This document shows, piece after piece, positions 7,401 through 52,920 of a stretch of DNA of 64,000 nucleotides. A model generated the notes under the pieces. The model saw nothing but the letters and a program-made list of their open reading frames with translations, ran no database searches and was not told where the DNA came from. Each line of letters opens with the position of its first letter. Within the stretch, counting starts at the first letter, position 1. A program made the position numbers and the translations under genes. The stretch is from Candidatus Sungiibacteriota bacterium (GTDB lineage: Bacteria > Patescibacteriota > Minisyncoccia > Sungbacterales > HO2-52-23): positions 250,702 through 314,701 of the forward strand of contig CP066690.1 of the NCBI GenBank assembly GCA_016432465.1, read 5' to 3'.

Positions 7401-7639
7401 TCCGAGCAGGACATTGGCACGAGCCTCCGCCTGCCCGTTAGGGCAGAACGCCGAAACAAAATTTTCTTTCTCTTTTAGAAGAAAAAAATCTGGCGCGCGC
7501 GAAAAATCAAAAATGTAAAGAAAATTTTGTTGGGGCGTAGCCCCGCCTTTGGCGGGACGCGGAGGCGTTGAGTAGCTAGAATTTTTTAGGAATTTTTGAC
7601 AAAGTAGGTTCGAGCGGACTCATAAAGATACATTCCCAT

Positions 7640-9525: not shown

Positions 9526-9616
9526 GGTGGGATGCCAGAGTCCGGTTGAATGGGCCGCACTCGAAATGCGGTATCCCGCTTTAGCGGGATCGGGGGTTCA
9601 AATCCCTCTCCCACCG
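9526..9616 (+). tRNA. tRNA-Ser (anticodon CGA), type II
   Basis: acceptor GGTGGGA/TCCCACC, anticodon stem CCGCA/TGCGG with loop CTCGAAA, long variable arm TATCCCGCTTTAGCGGGATC, T-arm GGGGG-TTCAAAT-CCCTC; terminator-like hairpin follows at 9622-9660. Confidence 0.75.
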
Positions 9617-22383: not shown

Positions 22384-22602
22384 TTACCGCAGAGATTACC
22401 GGTTTTTCAGGAGTCCGATAATGCTTTTAGTATAGCATATTAGGAGCTATAAGTCAAGCAAACAAAAAAATCAGCATTTCTGCTGTTTCTTGGCCTAAAT
22501 CTTATAAATTCTATGATTAAAAGTTTTTCTTTTCTTCTTTCAAAATCGCCAATTCGTTTTTCTTGTCCGCCAAAGGCGGATCTGCCTTTGGCATGAGGCG
22601 GC

Positions 22603-23574
22603 TTAATTAGTTCTTTGCCAACTTTCGCCAGCGTTTGAACTTCGATAGATTATACCATCTTCACTAGAAACAGTAAGTTCTTCAGAATTTTTAGAATTGA
22701 TGGCAATAGCAGTAATCTTGATACCATTAAGACCGTCGAGTTTTTTCCAGTTTTGTCCAGCATCAGTTGTTTTCCAAGCCCCAGCTTGCGTGCCCGCATA
22801 CATAATAGTTAAATCTTTATGAAGAGTGGCGAGCGTATAAACTGTTGTGTTGTCAAAAACATTCGTTGTTTTTGTCCAGCCGCAAAAACAACTAAAAGAT
22901 TGGGAAACGCCGTCAGCCGTTCCCGCCAAGAGGAGACCCCAATTATCCCAGCCCATAGATTTATCCATCGAAGTTTGTACCGCCATGTATACAAACGACC
23001 TTACCCCGGGATTCTCTGGTCCGTCATCCATACGCTTCCACGAAACGCCGCCGTCTTTACTTTTGAACACCCCATTATCAACAGAGTAGGCAAAAAGTAA
23101 ATCGGGATTACGTTGATTAACCGTCAAGCCATGAATATCCGTACCCTTTATTCCCTCATCAGAACGCATCCAGGTAATACCATCGTCAATACTTTTTATG
23201 ACACCTAAATCATGCCCACCGGCAAAAATTGTTTTCTGGTTTCGGGGGTCAACCACAATACTCATCCAATCATCAGCGTTGATACTTCCTTTTACCGAAA
23301 CCTTTTGCCAAGTTTTGCCGTCATTGTTGCTCTTGAATAGTCCGCCATGTGTTCCTAAAAGTAGATTTCCCCTTGAGTCATAGGTAATGGCATGGATATG
23401 TTGAGCCACGGGTATTACAGAATTACTAGAACCACTTTTATCACTATGAGACATTACGGTTTTCTTGGCCGAAATATCCCCTAGAGTATTGGTAGACTTA
23501 TTACTTATTCCCAAAAAATAACCAACGGCTATGGCACCAATAATAAAAACCGGAATTAATAGTTTATTATTCAT
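22603..23574 (-). CDS. BNR/Asp-box repeat protein (sialidase-fold, Ycf48-like), membrane-anchored
   Basis: five S-x-D-x-G-x-T/S-W motifs (SNNDGKTWQ, SIDDGITWM, SKDGGVSWK, TTDAGQNWK, SSNAGESWQ); start taken at MNNKLLIPVF, ATG at 23574. Confidence 0.65.
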   Translation of the reverse strand: MNNKLLIPVFIIGAIAVGYFLGISNKSTNTLGDISAKKTVMSHSDKSGSSNSVIPVAQHIHAITYDSRGNLLLGTHGGLFKSNNDGKTWQKVSVKGSINADDWMSIVVDPRNQKTIFAGGHDLGVIKSIDDGITWMRSDEGIKGTDIHGLTVNQRNPDLLFAYSVDNGVFKSKDGGVSWKRMDDGPENPGVRSFVYMAVQTSMDKSMGWDNWGLLLAGTADGVSQSFSCFCGWTKTTNVFDNTTVYTLATLHKDLTIMYAGTQAGAWKTTDAGQNWKKLDGLNGIKITAIAINSKNSEELTVSSEDGIIYRSSNAGESWQRTN

Positions 23575-23589
23575 AAAATTGCGATTAGG

Positions 23590-23880
23590 GGTTTTTCTTT
23601 TATTCTTTCCGTACTGGTGCGCGGGAGAGGACTTGCCTACAATTCTCGCCGGCTTCCGCCGGCTCGGTCGCAGGCCGCCCCTCGCGGTTTTGCTCGCCAA
23701 CTGCTCGCAAAACATCCCTGCGGTCTTCAAATTCTCACGCAACGCACGCAGGTGCGTTGCTTCCCTGCTCATTCGCTTCGCTCATTGCGCGGGAGAGGAT
23801 TTGAACCCCGCACTAAAATTTGCACCGGCTCCACCGAAAACAAAAGTGCAAATTTAGTGGCGGGGCATACCTCCACGCCT
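23590..23880. repeat. GC-rich region with two direct copies of a tRNA 3'-end-like sequence (GCGCGGGAGAGGA(C/T)TTG..)
   Basis: minus-strand GGTTCAAATCCTCTCCCGCGCA and GGCAAGTCCTCTCCCGCGCA; no complete cloverleaf could be built. Confidence 0.4.
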
Positions 23881-33098: not shown

Positions 33099-33396
33099 CC
33101 GCTTCCCGCAAATTCTCAGCCAGAGGCTGATTCGCCTTTGACGGAAAATAGGGTTCGAGTCCCGATGGCAAGCCACCGAGGATCCTCGACAAAGTCGGGA
33201 TCGGTGTTTTTCTCTGGGTTTTTCTATTGTTCCTATACTTTAACTTCTGCGGCGATAGTCGCCTCTTTCCTTTTTCATAAAAATATCGGCGATCTCGGAC
33301 GCAACGAGATACGTCTCATGGGAGACGAAACATCTTTTTAACTCGCGATATGGACAGTAATTTTTGATTCTTCGGGTCAGCCAGCGCTTCGGCCAA

Positions 33397-41748: not shown

Positions 41749-41835
41749 GGTGGGGTCGCATAGTGGTCTAGTGCGGCACGGTGCTAACGTGCTGACCCTT
41801 CACGGGGTCCGTGGGTTCGAATCCCACCCCCACCG
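41749..41835 (+). tRNA. tRNA-Ser (anticodon GCT), type II
   Basis: acceptor GGTGGGG/CCCCACC, anticodon stem GCACG/CGTGC with loop GTGCTAA, variable arm TGACCCTTCACGGGGTC, T-arm GTGGG-TTCGAAT-CCCAC. Confidence 0.8.
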
Positions 41836-43454: not shown

Positions 43455-43590
43455 GGTGGGTTCGCCTAATGGGTTGAAGCCAACTGCTTGGCTTCAACGG
43501 GCGATTTAGGCGAGCGTCCTCGCGAGCCGTTAAAAATCGCCCCGGGTTTCGCCGAGGAGGCGAAACGACACCAGTCTTCCCCGCACTACA
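43455..43590 (+). ncRNA. conserved structured element, copy C
   Basis: GGGCGATTT...AAATCGCCC hairpin (compensatory changes relative to GGGAAATTT/AAATTTCCC in copies A and B) and GTTTCGCC-GAGGAG-GGCGAAAC hairpin. Confidence 0.45.
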
Positions 43591-43596
43591 ATTTTG

Positions 43597-43671
43597 GAAG
43601 CGTGGCCGAGCGGTTTATGGCGCTGGTCTTGCCCGCCAGAGGCGGGTCCGCCTTTGGCGGAAAAACTACTT
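43597..43671 (+). pseudogene. tRNA-Ser-like 5' half fused to the 40-nt double-hairpin repeat (copy 1)
   Basis: GGAAGCGTGGCCGAGCGGTTTATGGCGCTGGTCTTGCCCGCCAGAGGCGGGTCCGCCTTTGGCGGAAAAACT has no T-arm or 3' acceptor. Confidence 0.5.
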
Positions 43672-43929
43672 ATGGCTATAACATACATTTTATTTAGTTC
43701 CAGTTGCGGTAAATTTTATGTTGGTTCTTCACGAAATGATAATATACGGGTTCGCCTTTCTGCCCACAATGCCGGACGAGTAAAATCTACTAAATCCTAT
43801 AGACCGTGGACTATTGTTACAACAGAAAAACTTCAGAGCTATTCTGATGCCAGAAAAAGAGAACTGTTTCTCAAGTCAGGTGTTGGGCGAAAATTGATAG
43901 CAGAGAAATTTGGATTTTTGAAAAGTTAA
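43672..43929 (+). CDS. GIY-YIG nuclease-domain protein (UPF0213/YhbQ-like), copy 1
   Basis: YILFSS..GKFYVGSSRN...RLSAHNAG....T....PW.IV..E......A..RE..LKS..GR pattern; real start at MAITYIL. Confidence 0.65.
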   Translation: MAITYILFSSSCGKFYVGSSRNDNIRVRLSAHNAGRVKSTKSYRPWTIVTTEKLQSYSDARKRELFLKSGVGRKLIAEKFGFLKS

Positions 43930-43950
43930 TATGTGTGGCGGGCTTGGTAG

Positions 43951-44023
43951 GGTGGCCGAGTGGTTTAAGGCGGCGGTCTTGCCCGCCAGAGGCGGGTCCG
44001 CCTTTGGCGGAAAAACTCAATAG
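43951..44023 (+). pseudogene. tRNA-Ser-like 5' half fused to the 40-nt double-hairpin repeat (copy 2)
   Basis: GGTAGGGTGGCCGAGTGGTTTAAGGCGGCGGTCTTGCCCGCCAGAGGCGGGTCCGCCTTTGGCGGAAAAACT. Confidence 0.5.
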
Positions 44024-44024
44024 T

Positions 44025-44315
44025 ATGCCCTGTATTTATATCTTATATAGCAGAAGTAAAAATAGGTTTTATGTCGGATCAACTAGAGACGATAGGCCTT
44101 TTGTGCGTTTAGACTCACACAACCATGGAAAGGTTCGCTCTACAAAAGCCGGACGGCCGTGGGCACTGACATACCAAGAGTACTACTCCAATTACCATCA
44201 AGCGAGGAAAAGAGAAATCTTCTTAAAATCCGGTGTTGGTAGGACTTGGATTAAAGAAAAATTTCCAAATCTAAAGAACGACGGCGCCGGAGCGGAGACG
44301 TGGGTGAGTGGCTGA
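44025..44315 (+). CDS. GIY-YIG nuclease-domain protein (UPF0213/YhbQ-like), copy 2
   Basis: MPCIYILYSRSKNRFYVGSTRDD...RLDSHNHGKVRSTKAGRPWALTYQEYY..YHQARKREIFLKSGVGR; its 3' end overlaps tRNA-Ser(TGA). Confidence 0.6.
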   Translation: MPCIYILYSRSKNRFYVGSTRDDRPFVRLDSHNHGKVRSTKAGRPWALTYQEYYSNYHQARKREIFLKSGVGRTWIKEKFPNLKNDGAGAETWVSG

Positions 44316-44380
44316 AACCGGCAGTCTTGAAAACTGCTATACCTGTAAGGGTATCGGAGGTTCGAATCCTCCCGTCTCCG
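44294..44380 (+). tRNA. tRNA-Ser (anticodon TGA), type II
   Basis: acceptor GGAGACG/CGTCTCC, anticodon stem GCAGT/ACTGC with loop CTTGAAA, variable arm ATACCTGTAAGGGTATC, T-arm GGAGG-TTCGAAT-CCTCC; flanked by complementary GCCGGAGC / GCTCCGGC. Confidence 0.8.
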
Positions 44381-44390
44381 CTCCGGCTCT

Positions 44391-44470
44391 GTCTTGCCCG
44401 CCAGAGGCGGGTCCGCCTTTGGCGGAAAAACTGGCGGGAGAAATCCCTTGCAGGTTCGACTCCTGCACCC
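44391..44470 (+). repeat. 40-nt double-hairpin repeat (copy 3) followed by a tRNA T-arm/acceptor 3' fragment
   Basis: TCTTGCCCGCCAGAGGCGGGTCCGCCTTTGGCGGAAAAACT then CTTGCAGGTTCGACTCCTGCACCCACCG. Confidence 0.5.
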
Positions 44471-44518
44471 ACCGTCGGTTAGGAAAAGGTCGATTTTTCA
44501 TAAATTTCATTTTATATT

Positions 44519-49431: not shown

Positions 49432-51537
49432 ATGGCTGACATCCGTATCCACACCCCCATAGAGCAAGTCCCGGCCATCAGGAAAAGGATCATTCCGTCC
49501 CTGAAGCGTCTGGGTATAAAAACCATACGCGATCTTTTGTTTCATTTTCCTTCGCGCTACGAAGATTTTTCAAATTTAAAAACAGTCCAAACCCTTGAGG
49601 CCGGCGAAACGGTCACTATCCAAGGATACGTGAAAAGAGTAACCAATCGCCGGACTCCCCGAAAAAGAATGTTTTTAACCGAAGCCGTAATAAATGACGG
49701 AACGGGAAATATAAAAGCCCTGTGGTTCAACCAGCCCTTTCTCGTAAGAAACATAAAATCCGGAAACATAGTGAGTTTGTCGGGCAAAGTAGCGTGGGGG
49801 CAGGGCGGATTGTATCTTCAGAATCCTGCCTACGAGAGAATTCATAATTCAGAGTTTAAAACAACTAGTTCACAAGGAACACATACCGGAGGACTGGTGG
49901 CTATGTATCCGGAAACGGAAGGTATTTCTTCCCGCTGGTTAAGATATCTTATAAAGTCGTTCCTGAGCTTTAGGAAGGAACTTGCTGATCCCCTTCCTTC
50001 GGAGACTAGAAAAAGACACATGCTGTCCGATATTTATACGGCCTTGCAAAACATTCATTTCCCCCAAAACACACAAGAGGCGGAGGGGGCACGCCGCAGG
50101 TTTAGTTTTGAACAGATGCTTTTTATACAGCTTCGGGCCCTGAAAGAACGTATGCGCCTCAAAAAATTCAGCGCACCAGCTATTTCCTTGAATCTCCCGC
50201 TCCTGAAAAAATTTGTAAACTCTCTTCCCTATGAGCTAACCGACGCCCAACGCCGTTCCGTCTGGGAAATTGTGCAGGATATTTCCAAACCCCGCCCTAT
50301 GAACCGCCTGCTGGAAGGAGACGTAGGGTCCGGCAAAACAGTAGTTGCGGCTGCGGCTTCACTCCTTGCTATTCAGGAGGGGTACGAAGTCGCCTTTATG
50401 GCGCCGACAGAGATTCTTGCCAAGCAGCACTACTCAACGCTTGAAAAAATATTACACCCTTTTGGGGTTCGGGTTGGACTTCTTACCGGATCCGAAAAAA
50501 ACAAACGTAGTAACACCCTGCTCTGTGTAGGAACTCACGCCTTAATACAAAAAAACGCCCACTTTAAAAATCTGGGGTTGGTGATTGTTGATGAACAGCA
50601 TCGTTTTGGCGTGGAGCAACGCGCCCAGCTTGCCAAAAACAGTTCCGGTTCCCTTCCCCATTTCTTGTCTATGAGCGCCACACCCATCCCCCGGACATTG
50701 GCTCTCACCGTATATGGAGATCTTGACCTTTCTATACTGGACGAGCTGCCTAAAAACCGCAGGGAAATTATTACTAAAATTATCGGGCCCGGGAAACGGG
50801 AAGAAACATATCAATTCATCCGGGAAGGGGTGAAGCGGGGGGGACAGGCGTTTGTGATTTGCCCGAGAATAGAAGTCGGGGGTCAGGGATTGAAAATCGG
50901 AAAAATATCCCAACAGAAACTGCTTCTGGCCGACACCAAGACCGTGAAAGAGGAATATAAAAAACTATCCGAGAAAATTTTCCCGGATTTAAATGTGGGC
51001 ATACTCCACGGAAAGATGCCCGCCAAAGGCGGGTCCGCCTCCGGCGGAAAATCAAAAGAGCAAACTATGAAAGAATTCAAAGAAGGTAAGATAGATATTC
51101 TCGTCTCCACGTCGGTGGTGGAAGTAGGGGTGGACATACCCAACGCCACCATCATGGTGATTGAGGGAGCGGAAAAGTTTGGGCTGGCCCAACTTCATCA
51201 ATTTCGCGGTCGTGTGGGCAGAGGCGAACATCAATCTTACTGCTTCCTTTTTCCCACCGAGAATGGACTTGTAACCAAGCGGCTTAGGGCAGTGGTGGAG
51301 GCCAAGAACGGGTTTGAACTGGCAGAAAAAGATCTGGAAATCCGGGGGCCGGGAGACTTATTTGGCATACGCCAATGGGGAGTTCCGGACGTTGTATTGG
51401 CTGACATAAACAATGCCCGCCTGGTACGGGAAGTACGCGTTGCGGCCTTGGAGCTTATTAAAAAAGACCCTTCTTTGACCGGCTACCCCTTACTTTTGGA
51501 AGAACTCAAGCGCAGCCACACCCTTCATCTTGAATAA
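49432..51537 (+). CDS. recG: ATP-dependent DNA helicase RecG (carries an in-frame 12-aa repeat-derived insertion)
   Basis: wedge domain N-terminus; helicase motif I GDVGSGKT, motif II DEQHRFG; 701 aa; residues PAKGGSASGGKS are encoded by the double-hairpin repeat at 51017-51056. Confidence 0.9.
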   Translation: MADIRIHTPIEQVPAIRKRIIPSLKRLGIKTIRDLLFHFPSRYEDFSNLKTVQTLEAGETVTIQGYVKRVTNRRTPRKRMFLTEAVINDGTGNIKALWFNQPFLVRNIKSGNIVSLSGKVAWGQGGLYLQNPAYERIHNSEFKTTSSQGTHTGGLVAMYPETEGISSRWLRYLIKSFLSFRKELADPLPSETRKRHMLSDIYTALQNIHFPQNTQEAEGARRRFSFEQMLFIQLRALKERMRLKKFSAPAISLNLPLLKKFVNSLPYELTDAQRRSVWEIVQDISKPRPMNRLLEGDVGSGKTVVAAAASLLAIQEGYEVAFMAPTEILAKQHYSTLEKILHPFGVRVGLLTGSEKNKRSNTLLCVGTHALIQKNAHFKNLGLVIVDEQHRFGVEQRAQLAKNSSGSLPHFLSMSATPIPRTLALTVYGDLDLSILDELPKNRREIITKIIGPGKREETYQFIREGVKRGGQAFVICPRIEVGGQGLKIGKISQQKLLLADTKTVKEEYKKLSEKIFPDLNVGILHGKMPAKGGSASGGKSKEQTMKEFKEGKIDILVSTSVVEVGVDIPNATIMVIEGAEKFGLAQLHQFRGRVGRGEHQSYCFLFPTENGLVTKRLRAVVEAKNGFELAEKDLEIRGPGDLFGIRQWGVPDVVLADINNARLVREVRVAALELIKKDPSLTGYPLLLEELKRSHTLHLE
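51017..51056 (+). repeat. 40-nt double-hairpin repeat, copy 4, inserted in frame inside recG
   Basis: GATGCCCGCCAAAGGCGGGTCCGCCTCCGGCGGAAAATC versus the consensus CTTGCCCGCCAGAGGCGGGTCCGCCTTTGGCGGAAAAACT. Confidence 0.65.
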
Positions 51538-51684: not shown

Positions 51685-52920
51685 TCAAAGTGTCCTAAAC
51701 ACTTTAGCAATACGGATAAGTGCCAGTTTAAGCACGTCTTTTTCAATGATAAGGGGCGGTGAAAAACGAATTACGTTCTCGTGCGCATCCTTGCAGAGAA
51801 TCCGCTCCCCGCGCAAGGCGTCAACAAATCTGGCAGCTCCTCCTGCCTCGGGCCGCAATTCAATTCCCACCAAAAGACCCCTTCCACGCACCTCTTTTAT
51901 GTAAGGACTATAGATATTTTTAAGCTCGGATATAAAAAATTCTCCAAGTTCGGCAGCGCGCTGCGGCAGGTTTTCCCGCACAAGCAAATGCATCTCTTCA
52001 CGCGCCACGGCACAAGCCAGCGGATTTCCGCCAAAAGTGCTTCCGTGATCTCCGGGTTCAAAAACATCCATAAGTTCATTTATCCCTACTACTGCAGAAA
52101 TTCCCAAGCCGCCACCCAAGCCCTTACCCAGAAGCATTGCGTCCGGAAAAGACCCGTCATGCATATAAGCAAACATCTTACCTGTTCTGCCCAAACCAGT
52201 TTGAACCTCGTCCAGAATCATCAAAACGTGGTGAGCATCGCATATTTGACGAACATCGTTTAAGTAGCCGTCCGGAGGAACCAAAATTCCACCCTCGCCC
52301 TGAATAGGCTCAACAATAATGGCTGCGGTGTTGGGGTTGATCGCTTCTTCAAAAGCTCTGGCATCACCAAATGGTATTTTTTTAAACCCGGGAACCGGCG
52401 GACCAAAAAGATCATAGTACTGGGGAACGGTTGAAGCGCTTATAGCCCCGATGGTCCGGCCATGGAAATTGTTTTTACAAACAACGATCTCGGCCTGATC
52501 TTTGGGAACTACTTTTTCTGTATAAACATCTTTTCTGGTGTAAGCCCATTTGCGCGCGAGCTTGACGGCGCTATCAAAGACCTCTGCCCCGCTGGTCATA
52601 AAAAGAACCTTGTCCATGCCCGTAAACTCGGCCAGTTCCTTAGCACAAAGAATTTTCTGCTCTTCCCAAAGACAATTCGCATTGGCCGTAAGTTTACCCG
52701 CCTGACGAATGATGGCTTTTAGGATTTGGGGATGAACATGCCCGGGTGCAAGAGCGGAGTAACAAGAAAGCAGATCAACAAAAACCCGATCTTCAACATC
52801 ATAAAGCAGTACGCCTTGCCCCCGACTGACTACTAAGTCATCGGGCGGATCATAATTTCTGGGCAAATATTTATACGCTAACTCCACCAACTCTCTGATG
52901 GTTAAAGTGCGTTCACTCAT
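51685..52920 (-). CDS. class-III PLP-dependent aminotransferase (ornithine/acetylornithine aminotransferase-like)
   Basis: about 410 aa; GxGxxG-rich PLP fold; ILDEVQTGLGRTGKMFA carries the PLP-lysine context. Confidence 0.8.
   Translation of the reverse strand: MSERTLTIRELVELAYKYLPRNYDPPDDLVVSRGQGVLLYDVEDRVFVDLLSCYSALAPGHVHPQILKAIIRQAGKLTANANCLWEEQKILCAKELAEFTGMDKVLFMTSGAEVFDSAVKLARKWAYTRKDVYTEKVVPKDQAEIVVCKNNFHGRTIGAISASTVPQYYDLFGPPVPGFKKIPFGDARAFEEAINPNTAAIIVEPIQGEGGILVPPDGYLNDVRQICDAHHVLMILDEVQTGLGRTGKMFAYMHDGSFPDAMLLGKGLGGGLGISAVVGINELMDVFEPGDHGSTFGGNPLACAVAREEMHLLVRENLPQRAAELGEFFISELKNIYSPYIKEVRGRGLLVGIELRPEAGGAARFVDALRGERILCKDAHENVIRFSPPLIIEKDVLKLALIRIAKVFRTL

Follow-up and report, generated by a model that had tools for sequence, protein, structure and literature searches.

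A 30-bp double-hairpin element inserted in frame in recG of a Sungbacteria genome, a probable member of a cross-phylum family of mobile DNAs associated with tRNA and GIY-YIG genes

How did a GC-rich double hairpin come to lie in frame within a conserved helicase gene, and what kind of DNA is it? The question is raised by recG in a 64,000-nt stretch of the genome of a Candidatus Sungiibacteriota bacterium (assembly GCA_016432465.1, contig CP066690.1, positions 250,702 to 314,701 of the forward strand; the whole stretch is called the window below). Within this gene lies a 30-nt unit, here termed element E, which an original prediction had described as a repeat of two hairpins inserted without loss of the reading frame. 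Taking together filled and empty recG alleles, copies in other phyla and the tRNA and GIY-YIG genes found beside many of them, we consider, with a probability of about 0.75 for the explanation as a whole, that the insert in recG belongs to a family of 30-bp mobile DNA elements, each consisting of two tandem GC-rich hairpins. E is best read as a bacterial counterpart of the double-hairpin elements of mitochondria.

The insert in recG and its copies in the window

The host gene, its insert and the exact repeats are as follows.

49432..51537, plus strand: recG, 701 aa, full length, host gene of the E insertion (open reading frame with RecG_wedge, DEAD and Helicase_C domains)
51019..51048, plus strand: element E in recG, 30 nt, two tandem 15-nt hairpins, in frame, encoding PAKGGSASGG (RecG residues 530-539)
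51049..51093, plus strand: flank travelling with E, KSKEQTMKEFKEGKI, resembling E-bearing alleles and not the closest E-less relatives
43632..43661, plus strand: E copy 1, exact repeat, in the anticodon loop of tRNA-Ser fragment 1 (CTTG^E^AAAACT)
43982..44011, plus strand: E copy 2, exact repeat, in the anticodon loop of tRNA-Ser fragment 2
44397..44426, plus strand: E copy 3, exact repeat, 15 nt downstream of an intact tRNA-Ser

The E consensus is [C-CCGCC-NNA-GGCGG-G][T-CCGCC-TNN-GGCGG-A], 30 nt in length. A 40-mer, CTTGCCCGCCAGAGGCGGGTCCGCCTTTGGCGGAAAAACT, has exactly three copies in the window (43628-43667, 43978-44017 and 44393-44432) where 100 shuffles gave an expectation of none; these three exact copies had been recognised originally, at coordinates (43632, 43984 and 44391) that deviate by a few bases. 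Inside recG, at 51019-51047, lies a fourth window copy of the 29-nt core CCCGCCNNNGGCGGGTCCGCCNNNGGCGG, again with a chance expectation of none, and this copy differs from the other three solely in its two 3-nt loops (AGA>AAA and TTT>TCC). The insertion context in the window recG is ATG[CCCGCCAAAGGCGGGTCCGCCTCCGGCGGA]AAA, and the unfilled site reads …CACGGAAAAATG^AAATCAAAAGAA….

The product of the insert-bearing gene is 100% identical to a protein annotated as RecG in Candidatus Sungiibacteriota, matches RecG of T. maritima (PDB 1gm5) with an expectation value of 4e-138, and has every helicase motif intact. The inserted unit comprises 10 codons (PAKGGSASGG) and not the 12 proposed at first; the net gain in RecG is 8 residues, since E-bearing alleles are also 2 residues shorter just downstream. 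Because E amounts to 10 codons without stop codons, it leaves reading frames intact. An 8-residue gap opens at the insert in alignments with both 1gm5 and the E. coli-like RecG of 9wm0 (HGRMKP--------AEKQAVMASF), in agreement with the shorter stretch that had been predicted for RecG of the E. coli type. In an AlphaFold model (mean predicted local distance difference test score, pLDDT, 83), E is placed in helicase domain 2, between the motif-IV strand (522-525) and a helix (542-550), within a coil (526-541) in which pLDDT dips to ~70; the check proposed originally thus speaks for an inserted loop. It is very likely that E is translated as a flexible Pro/Ala/Gly/Ser surface loop that RecG tolerates. 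Among orthologues whose DNA was read, a GGSASGG-type loop outside the repeat family, which would have counted against the insertion, was not found: loci L121, L025, L039, L067 and L206 all encode the loop with E.

Filled and empty recG alleles

No insert of any kind is present at this position in 98 of the 118 scored close Sungbacteria RecG sequences, which have the 26-residue stretch LHGKMKSKEKEAVMKKFKNREIDILV instead, or in 87 of the 103 scored RecG sequences of the Magasanikbacteria type. A minority of the 118 carry PA[KR]GGSASGG or longer variants following HGKM. At the DNA level, filled and empty recG alleles differ by exactly 30 nt and the target is not duplicated (window and L121 versus L124; L206 versus L207), the empty site of L124 being TTA^AAG. 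Together with the 98 relatives lacking an insert, this exact difference bears out the in-frame insertion of a double-hairpin repeat. The recG of L121 has the same insertion as the window, with loops AGA/TCG, and, judging by eye from flanking translations, the same site is also occupied by E in Magasanikbacteria and Paceibacterota.

Other sites in recG have been used as well. At a second place, after KF, other RecGs have SAKGESASGG or the half unit SAKGG, and L123 contains an independent insertion there (TTT[TCCGCC…GGCGGA]AAA), which further supports the view of E as a mobile repeat. An Omnitrophota recG (L009) has E at still a further site, as two units separated by 7 nt, of which the first is in a different frame. 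The recG copy of L122 has a 21-nt CCTGCC…GGCAGG hairpin nested between its two hairpins, and a tRNA-Met fragment in L199 has the same stem in its D loop.

E-bearing RecGs do not form a clade in a neighbour-joining tree of 83 RecG proteins from which the insert region was masked. Outside this region, E-bearing proteins share 87% (P0002/P0026), 83% (P0005/P0016) and 90% (P0132/P0137) identity with their E-less sisters, and this interleaving at 83-90% identity led us to reject a single ancestral insertion followed by vertical inheritance. The 15 residues following E are the exception: in P0002 and P0005 they are 33-47% identical to the E-less sisters, against 65-73% among E-bearing proteins, with KSKEQVMKDFRDGK and a 2-residue deletion in common, and in P0132, from the Magasanikbacteria-type set, they likewise match other E-bearing alleles and not P0137. 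In sliding windows, the window flank at 51049..51093 has an identity of 0.40 to the closest E-less relative versus 0.68 to E-bearing alleles. The DNA of P0132 and P0137, 85% identical overall, agrees at 29 of 30 bases just upstream of E, drops to ~50% over ~48 nt after it, and then returns to normal. A second difference between the same two alleles is a clean 30-nt hairpin insertion before motif II, with undisturbed flanks.

The occurrence of E with ~45-50 nt of foreign flank in scattered recG alleles indicates lateral gene conversion, and the replacement patch together with the clean insertion on the motif-II side points to homologous replacement and de novo insertion both being at work. Copies of E thus probably spread in two ways, by de novo insertion and by homologous replacement (gene conversion) between alleles after DNA transfer.

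Within recG, the stems are conserved at the nucleotide level: in a comparison of the window with L121, identity at third codon positions was 38% over the 16 codons upstream of E, whereas 8 of 8 matched in the E stem codons (~4e-4). Such stem conservation inside a protein gene is an unusual case, a DNA-structure constraint overriding codon drift.

A separate peculiarity of recG was noted in six Sungbacteria RecGs of 840-907 aa (P0054, P0055, P0062, P0066, P0073 and P0085), which have an extra GxxExxY / PD-(D/E)XK-like domain of 120-170 aa (PF13366). It is inserted in frame in a loop between QRAQLAKN and LPHFLSMSATPIPR, after the equivalent of window RecG residues ~400-407 (window ~50630-50650), and looks like a second, much larger in-frame passenger of recG.

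Two hairpins maintained by compensatory changes

As single-stranded DNA, either E version of the window adopts a pair of neighbouring hairpins, each with a 6-bp stem and a 3-nt loop (-13.7 kcal/mol, z ~ -4). Among 38 distinct elements, base pairing in the two-hairpin arrangement amounts to 97.8%, which is not independent evidence since the scan that chose these elements itself demanded pairing; both sides had changed in 10 of 12 pairs. The covariation score for two hairpins was 0.276 versus 0.092 for shuffled data and was reached by 0 of 500 shuffles; for a single long hairpin it was 0.115 versus 0.084. One long palindrome was rejected as the underlying structure, its covariation being far weaker than that of two hairpins and loop-to-loop complementarity lying weakly above the shuffled value (97 vs 80±6.5); RNA of the AGA/TTT copy would nonetheless fold in this way. 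Independent evidence for pairing is provided by compensated variants at the same genomic position, described below. The hairpins are maintained by compensatory changes, and the covariation adds further to the case for the mobile double-hairpin repeat first proposed.

A family across phyla

To place these copies in a wider context, the pattern GCCNNNGGCGGGTCCGCCNNNGGCGG was scanned against one genome per species. At least 120 loci were found, and ~105 copies were retained among the matches listed, after removal of chance matches in high-GC actinobacteria. Hosts among these matches were many classes of Patescibacteria, Omnitrophota (including a single-cell genome), Planctomycetota, Kiritimatiellae, Lentisphaerota, Chloroflexota/Dehalococcoidia, uncultured Gammaproteobacteria and others. 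The 24 stem nucleotides are identical in non-coding DNA, tRNA fragments and unrelated genes, in both orientations and in assemblies from many laboratories. The loops vary, the first hairpin having a purine-rich and the second a pyrimidine-rich loop.

Insertion sites conform to the consensus T-N^E^A-A(-A), with T at -2 in 73 of 105 copies and A at +1, +2 and +3 in 100, 80 and 90 of 105, respectively. E inserts precisely, as a 30-bp addition at T-N^A-A-A, in either orientation and without target duplication. Some copies are in spacers, others in genes or in tRNA loops, and certain long inverted repeats have a copy at their tips; about half of the copies are inside long open reading frames (ORFs). 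The 72 long-ORF cases are read as PAxGGSAxGG (27), as SAxGGPAxGG from the opposite strand (24), or in one of the other four frames (21). Phase 0 accounts for 51 of these 72 cases (71%, against the 49% that the target motif alone predicts; z ~3.7), a bias partly due to the target motif itself and with several of the other-frame 'ORFs' maybe spurious. The near-equal orientations in genes (27 vs 24) reveal no strand preference, which argues against a strand-specific RNA role. Judging by eye from flanking translations, several copies lie right after N-terminal ATG codons. One gammaproteobacterial copy is in what we take to be a UvrA-like ORF and others presumably in kinase-like ORFs (assignments made by eye and unchecked against any library).

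Flanking stems of at least 9 bp surround E in 9 of 105 copies versus 2 of 477 controls. This is a tendency, and obligatory insertion at inverted-repeat tips was rejected as mean flank stem length was like that of the control. Nesting also occurs, as in L138, where one E lies within the second loop of another. In L024, L030, L035, L038 and L068 (Omnitrophota and Planctomycetia), E was observed at the centre of long arrays of 7-8-nt repeats (GGTTACA…, CGGTGTG…, TCGTATA…), mirror-inverted on its two sides so that long palindromes result.

E had 1 match in 2.9 million viral contigs (IMG/VR) and none was found among INPHARED phages and PLSDB plasmids, on the basis of which a phage or plasmid vector was rejected. 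A search of Rfam with the element itself returned no match at the gathering threshold or at expectation values up to 1, and a known RNA family was rejected on this basis. A literature search by sequence, peptide and keyword found no description of E within its incomplete coverage, and a prior description is possible.

tRNA-Ser fragments and GIY-YIG genes in the window

The three window copies outside recG share a single setting. They had been taken as intergenic, which did not hold: all three are at CTTG^…^AAAAC, the anticodon loop of tRNA-Ser(UGA), each within a tRNA-Ser gene fragment. The surrounding features are given below.

43455..43578, plus strand: probable 5' part of a split resident tRNA-Ser, plus further hairpins (pairings read from the sequence)
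43596..43631, plus strand: tRNA-Ser-like 5' part, fragment 1 (acceptor strand to anticodon nt 35), 36 nt (sub-threshold Rfam tRNA match at 43596-43656, 20.9 bits)
43672..43929, plus strand: GIY-YIG gene 1, 85 aa, starting 10 nt past E copy 1 (PF01541, expectation value 4.7e-12)
43946..43981, plus strand: tRNA-Ser-like 5' part, fragment 2, 36 nt (from sequence)
44025..44315, plus strand: GIY-YIG gene 2, its ORF entering the intact tRNA-Ser and stopping in the D-loop (PF01541, expectation value 2.2e-11)
44294..44381, plus strand: intact tRNA-Ser(UGA), without E (ARAGORN; Rfam 59.7 bits)
44427..44474, plus strand: tRNA-Ser-like 3' part, with anticodon-stem strand ACTGG, variable arm, T arm and acceptor strand ACCCACC (weak tRNA-clan match)

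GIY-YIG gene 2, likewise given as an 85-aa gene, begins 13 nt past E copy 2, and both PF01541 matches are above the curated cut-off. The window cassettes are flanked on both sides by identical 40-mers. Pairing between GGTGGGT (43455) and ACCCACC (44467-44473), and between CCAGT (43571-43575, followed by CTT) and ACTGG (44430-44434), suggests that an older tRNA-Ser was split by successive insertions. Split or trans-spliced tRNA halves were considered and rejected, because the acceptor strands of both 5' fragments are without a nearby partner and the 3' fragment pairs with 43455.

Upstream of the tRNA fragments, the segment 43455-43590 contains three strong hairpins (TTGAAGCC…GGCTTCAA, GGGCGATTT…AAATCGCCC and GTTTCGCC-GAGGA-GGCGAAAC) with GGTGGGT on one side of them and CCAGTCTT on the other, both of which pair with the tRNA 3' part (44430-44473). 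The segment may represent a tRNA 5' half invaded by other hairpin elements. The 64-kb window has 16 tRNA genes in all, with three intact tRNA-Ser (CGA at 9526, GCU at 41749 and UGA at 44294); no tRNA-Ser(GGA) was seen within it.

GIY-YIG and tRNA genes at other loci

The same architecture recurs in other phyla: a tRNA 5' part that E interrupts in the anticodon or D loop continues for a few bases beyond E, and a GIY-YIG gene and then an intact copy of the same tRNA follow. It was seen for tRNA-Ser, Pro, Glu, Leu and Val, in places as arrays. In loci selected for E, 11-13 of 16 GIY-YIG ORFs start 11-30 nt from the element. As these loci had been chosen for E, a second, independent sample was taken of 80 metagenome loci selected solely by similarity to a GIY-YIG alignment of five sequences, 74 of them with enough upstream DNA.

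A canonical E ended 5-39 nt before the GIY-YIG gene in 47 of the 74 loci, and a tandem 15-nt hairpin pair was present upstream in 51 of 74, versus 1 of 275 control stretches. An intact tRNA started -15 to +46 nt from the end of the GIY-YIG gene in 70 of the 80. In 39 loci, the sequence to the left of the hairpins repeated the 5' part of the downstream tRNA exactly, over up to 36-45 nt. The junctions, all of them T-N^A/G-A-A sites, separated anticodon nt 35 from nt 36 in 25 loci; 8-9 others were in the D loop and 1 was in the T loop. GIY-YIG loci without a canonical E had variants at the same spot, with the same stems and 9-nt loops or with compensated stems (CAGCC/GGCTG, GAGCC/GGCTC, GCGCC/GGCGC and CCACC/GGTGG). 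In some loci, arrays placed E on both sides of the tRNA.

The GIY-YIG genes that follow E encode 80-95 aa. The GIY-YIG ORFs of L103, L104, L108 and L078 read ~36 nt into the following tRNA-Ser and end at its anticodon TGA. Since these ORFs, including 44025-44315 in the window, have no stop codon of their own, their last ~10 residues (…WPSGLRRRS) are encoded by the tRNA.

E-bearing tRNA pieces are truncated, with an intact, E-free copy kept alongside. Excision of E gave a whole tRNA for 1 of 100 copies, on which ground E was rejected as a tRNA intron. The larger phenomenon is a cross-phylum family of 30-bp double hairpins linked to miniature GIY-YIG cassettes at tRNA genes, with a candidate for the mobilising enzyme.

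Proposed mechanism and alternatives

An experimental precedent for such an enzyme is SegB of phage T4. The motif recognised by this GIY-YIG homing endonuclease is a tRNA stem-loop, and the enzyme promotes both the homing and the tandem amplification of tRNA regions (PMC2330249, PMC13096335). Patescibacteria and Omnitrophota have been described as exchanging genes, those for GIY-YIG proteins included (PMC12455944). By analogy, the co-distributed miniature GIY-YIG protein is the putative nuclease that would start both routes of spread, a tentative assignment to which we give somewhat less than even odds. Targets of the nuclease would be loop-like T-N^A-A-A sites, both in tRNA genes and outside them, and repair of the break would use an E-bearing template, as in 'collaborative' or intronless homing. 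Where the cut falls in a tRNA loop and the donor is a unit of tRNA part, E, nuclease gene and tRNA, repair would copy the cassette and leave an intact tRNA, and repeated rounds of cutting and repair would give tandem arrays of tRNA part, E and nuclease gene. Short or ectopic repair would yield solo copies of E, and a conversion patch of the kind observed in recG would result if a break close to an empty site were mended with an E-bearing allele as donor.

If the family indeed moves, many uncultivated bacteria, the streamlined Patescibacteria included, carry a pervasive 30-bp mobile element, which would rewrite conserved proteins with added Gly/Ser/Ala loops and would fragment and duplicate tRNA genes, leaving pseudo-tRNAs and spurious ORFs that mislead annotation. 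E would also mark recent DNA exchange between lineages and even phyla. For decades it has been unclear how the double-hairpin and GC-cluster elements of mitochondria move; E would represent their sequence-rich bacterial counterpart, with the 85-aa GIY-YIG protein as a concrete candidate enzyme. A bolder extension, which we regard as somewhat doubtful, is that the ~400-bp unit of partial tRNA, 30-bp double hairpin and 85-aa GIY-YIG gene is among the smallest autonomous mobile DNAs, homing into tRNA genes and regenerating an intact tRNA, and that thousands of solo hairpin pairs, located in proteins, tRNAs and spacers of several phyla, are its non-autonomous offspring, generated through repair synthesis at nuclease breaks. 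Were this so, it would constitute a transposition route requiring just a nuclease and host repair, and would provide a mechanism, long looked for, by which mitochondrial double-hairpin elements and GC clusters move.

Several points weigh against this explanation, in addition to the pairing built into the covariation set and the part of the frame bias that stems from the target motif. At ~85 aa, the GIY-YIG proteins amount to a catalytic domain with no obvious DNA-binding domain, and DNA cutting by them is a prediction from sequence. Most copies of E are solo and far from any GIY-YIG gene, and the association between the two could reflect just a common liking for tRNA loops, or nuclease genes homing into existing copies of E. 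The upstream edge of the recG conversion patch is masked, because motif-IV codons are conserved in all alleles, and no nuclease gene adjoins the ~48-nt patch, so that a link to the enzyme there is one we infer. Finally, taxon labels were taken from the record titles of metagenome-assembled genomes and some contigs are perhaps mis-binned, a worry lessened by the single-cell Omnitrophota genome.

The alternative that survives best holds that E moves by another route or is a fixed recognition site, the GIY-YIG genes being secondary and E in redundant tRNA fragments their landing pad or target, not their cargo. Each hairpin is, in duplex DNA, also a 13-bp interrupted palindrome (CCGCC-N3-GGCGG), the type of site expected for a dimeric nuclease. 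GIY-YIG enzymes such as I-TevI cut at CNNNG, where the variable N3 of E lies. Further in favour of a recognition site are the retention of E stems where flanks have diverged, the identical 40-mers that bound the window cassettes, and the presence of E on both sides of the tRNA in other arrays. On the other hand, a nuclease cutting E would destroy E-bearing alleles, not spread them; an intact E adjoins the nuclease gene in most loci; and compensatory stem variants fit base pairing better than a protein reading fixed bases. On balance, the landing-pad explanation seems unlikely.

We consider it quite improbable that E is a miniature, non-autonomous transposon related to repetitive extragenic palindromic (REP) sequences and REPINs or to IS200/IS605, moved as a hairpin by a Y1/HUH transposase encoded elsewhere. 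IS200/IS605 elements have hairpin ends, cause no target duplication and insert beside a short fixed motif. The nesting of E in hairpin loops and its enrichment at the tips of long inverted repeats (9/105 vs 2/477) would fit such a process. No transposase of this kind was seen beside E in ~1 Mb of sampled loci, in which GIY-YIG was the one neighbour family searched for and seen repeatedly, and no all-against-all clustering of the ORFs near E was made. E consists of hairpins only, leaving no room for guide sequences. REPs, moreover, are extragenic and bear GTAG/CGTC tags (PMC3733652), whereas E has no such tags and about half of its copies are in genes.

The two remaining alternatives are less likely still. 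An RNA-level role, as a mini-intron, a processing signal removed from transcripts or a structured RNA regulating recG translation, would draw on the very stable fold of E as RNA (-21 to -25 kcal/mol) and on its position in the tRNA anticodon loop, the classic place of tRNA introns. It is nevertheless very improbable, given that a complete tRNA results from excision in 1 of 100 copies and the truncated pieces lie beside an intact E-free copy, that E has a frame preference and no strand preference (27 vs 24), neither of which is expected for a spliced or strand-specific signal, that Rfam gave no match, and that the double-hairpin elements of fungi and the GC clusters of yeast reportedly stay in transcripts (PMC2800124). 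That the insert is an assembly artefact, or that selection for the peptide produced an ordinary lineage-specific loop in RecG, with the resemblance incidental, is scarcely credible and is contradicted by the data: some RecGs, such as P0110 and P0240, do have loops of differing length here, but identical stems, in either orientation, are found in non-coding DNA, tRNA fragments and unrelated genes, the assemblies with them come from many laboratories and include a single-cell genome, none are expected by chance, and synonymous stem sites are invariant.

Comparison with known systems

With the mobile double-hairpin family as the preferred explanation, the closest systems in behaviour are the mitochondrial double-hairpin and GC-cluster elements, of which E is not a member. 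The elements of Allomyces, the GC clusters of yeast and the hairpin repeats of sponges are, like E, very short and GC-rich, with one or two hairpins that have conserved stems and variable loops, and are dispersed in spacers, in structural RNA genes and occasionally in protein genes. According to work by Paquin, Laforest and Lang from 1994 and 2000, Allomyces elements reportedly adjoin a mobile endonuclease ORF that carries a partial copy of the target gene, an arrangement that parallels the partial tRNA and GIY-YIG gene at E. Unlike the mitochondrial elements, E resides in bacterial chromosomes, here on a contig of 923 kb, is unrelated in sequence and has a fixed size of 30 nt with the same stems across several phyla; its association with tRNA genes and an 85-aa GIY-YIG family has been quantified. 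E resembles the Allomyces elements in inserting without target-site duplication; for these, no flanking duplications have been reported, and they are not removed from transcripts (PMC2800124). E may be kept in transcripts, as its frame preference and the intact tRNA copy beside each E-bearing fragment suggest.

The GIY-YIG genes at E loci resemble SegB in lying among tRNA genes (70/80 loci) with duplicated tRNA segments and arrays. They differ in being cellular and not phage-borne and in encoding ~85 aa, in contrast to the larger, two-domain SegB. A hairpin element marking the break in the duplicated tRNA accompanies the proteins found here and is not described for SegB. SegB promotes its own inheritance together with flanking markers (PMC2330249, PMC13096335).

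The original prediction had likened the recG insert to Rickettsia palindromic elements, and the likeness holds for behaviour and not for family membership. Rickettsia palindromic elements are palindromic repeats lying in frame in conserved protein genes, which are kept, with a surface peptide added; they measure ~100-150 bp and are confined to Rickettsia and its relatives. E likewise inserts in frame in a conserved protein gene that is left intact (recG is full length, with all motifs), and it is set apart by size and taxa, being exactly 30 nt and hosted by Patescibacteria, Omnitrophota, Planctomycetota, Kiritimatiellae, Chloroflexota and others. We know of no report of a nuclease partner or a tRNA-fragment context for Rickettsia palindromic elements.

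As short GC-rich palindromes in many copies, E elements are also reminiscent of REPs, bacterial interspersed mosaic elements (BIMEs) and REPINs, from which they are distinguished by lying often within coding sequence and by flanks that, in place of a GTAG/CGTC tag, have T at -2 and A at +1 to +3. REPs are, in addition, tied to a Y1 (RAYT) transposase (PMC3733652). The very small dispersed repeats of cyanobacteria, which Elhai et al. (2008; cited in PMC3116915) are said to have described as ~20-30 nt long and nested in one another, are like E in their shortness and nesting. Two further classes were discarded: a miniature inverted-repeat transposable element derived from an insertion sequence, because there is no target duplication and no longer element that shares ends with the unit, which consists of two hairpins only; and a self-splicing intron or intein, because 30 nt (10 aa) is too small, Rfam gives no match and the E-bearing tRNA pieces are truncated.

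Other copies and neighbouring genes in the window

Three further features of the window are related to E to varying degrees.

33116..33145, plus strand: variant double hairpin TCAGCCAGAGGCTGA-TTCGCCTTTGACGGA after hisS, its first hairpin being the compensated variant (CAGCC/GGCTG) found upstream of GIY-YIG genes elsewhere
22566..22595, minus strand: degenerate E copy with 5 mismatches, just downstream of the ORF 22603..23772
7542..7556, no strand assigned: single hairpin CCCGCCTTTGGCGGG, a possible half element

Half elements encoding SAKGG are present in recG of other lineages. The variant after hisS is followed, at 33146-33200, by a T-arm-like GGGTTCGAGTCCC with …GCCACC and then by a terminator-like hairpin and a T run; this stretch may be the remnant of a tRNA 3' part.

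The genes next after recG differ between the window and related Sungbacteria contigs. In L121, L122 and L124, they encode Pup and Pup-ligase domains (PF05639 and PF03136); the window has in this place a minus-strand ORF of 411 aa (51685..52920), which by eye we take to be aminotransferase-like, an unchecked assignment.

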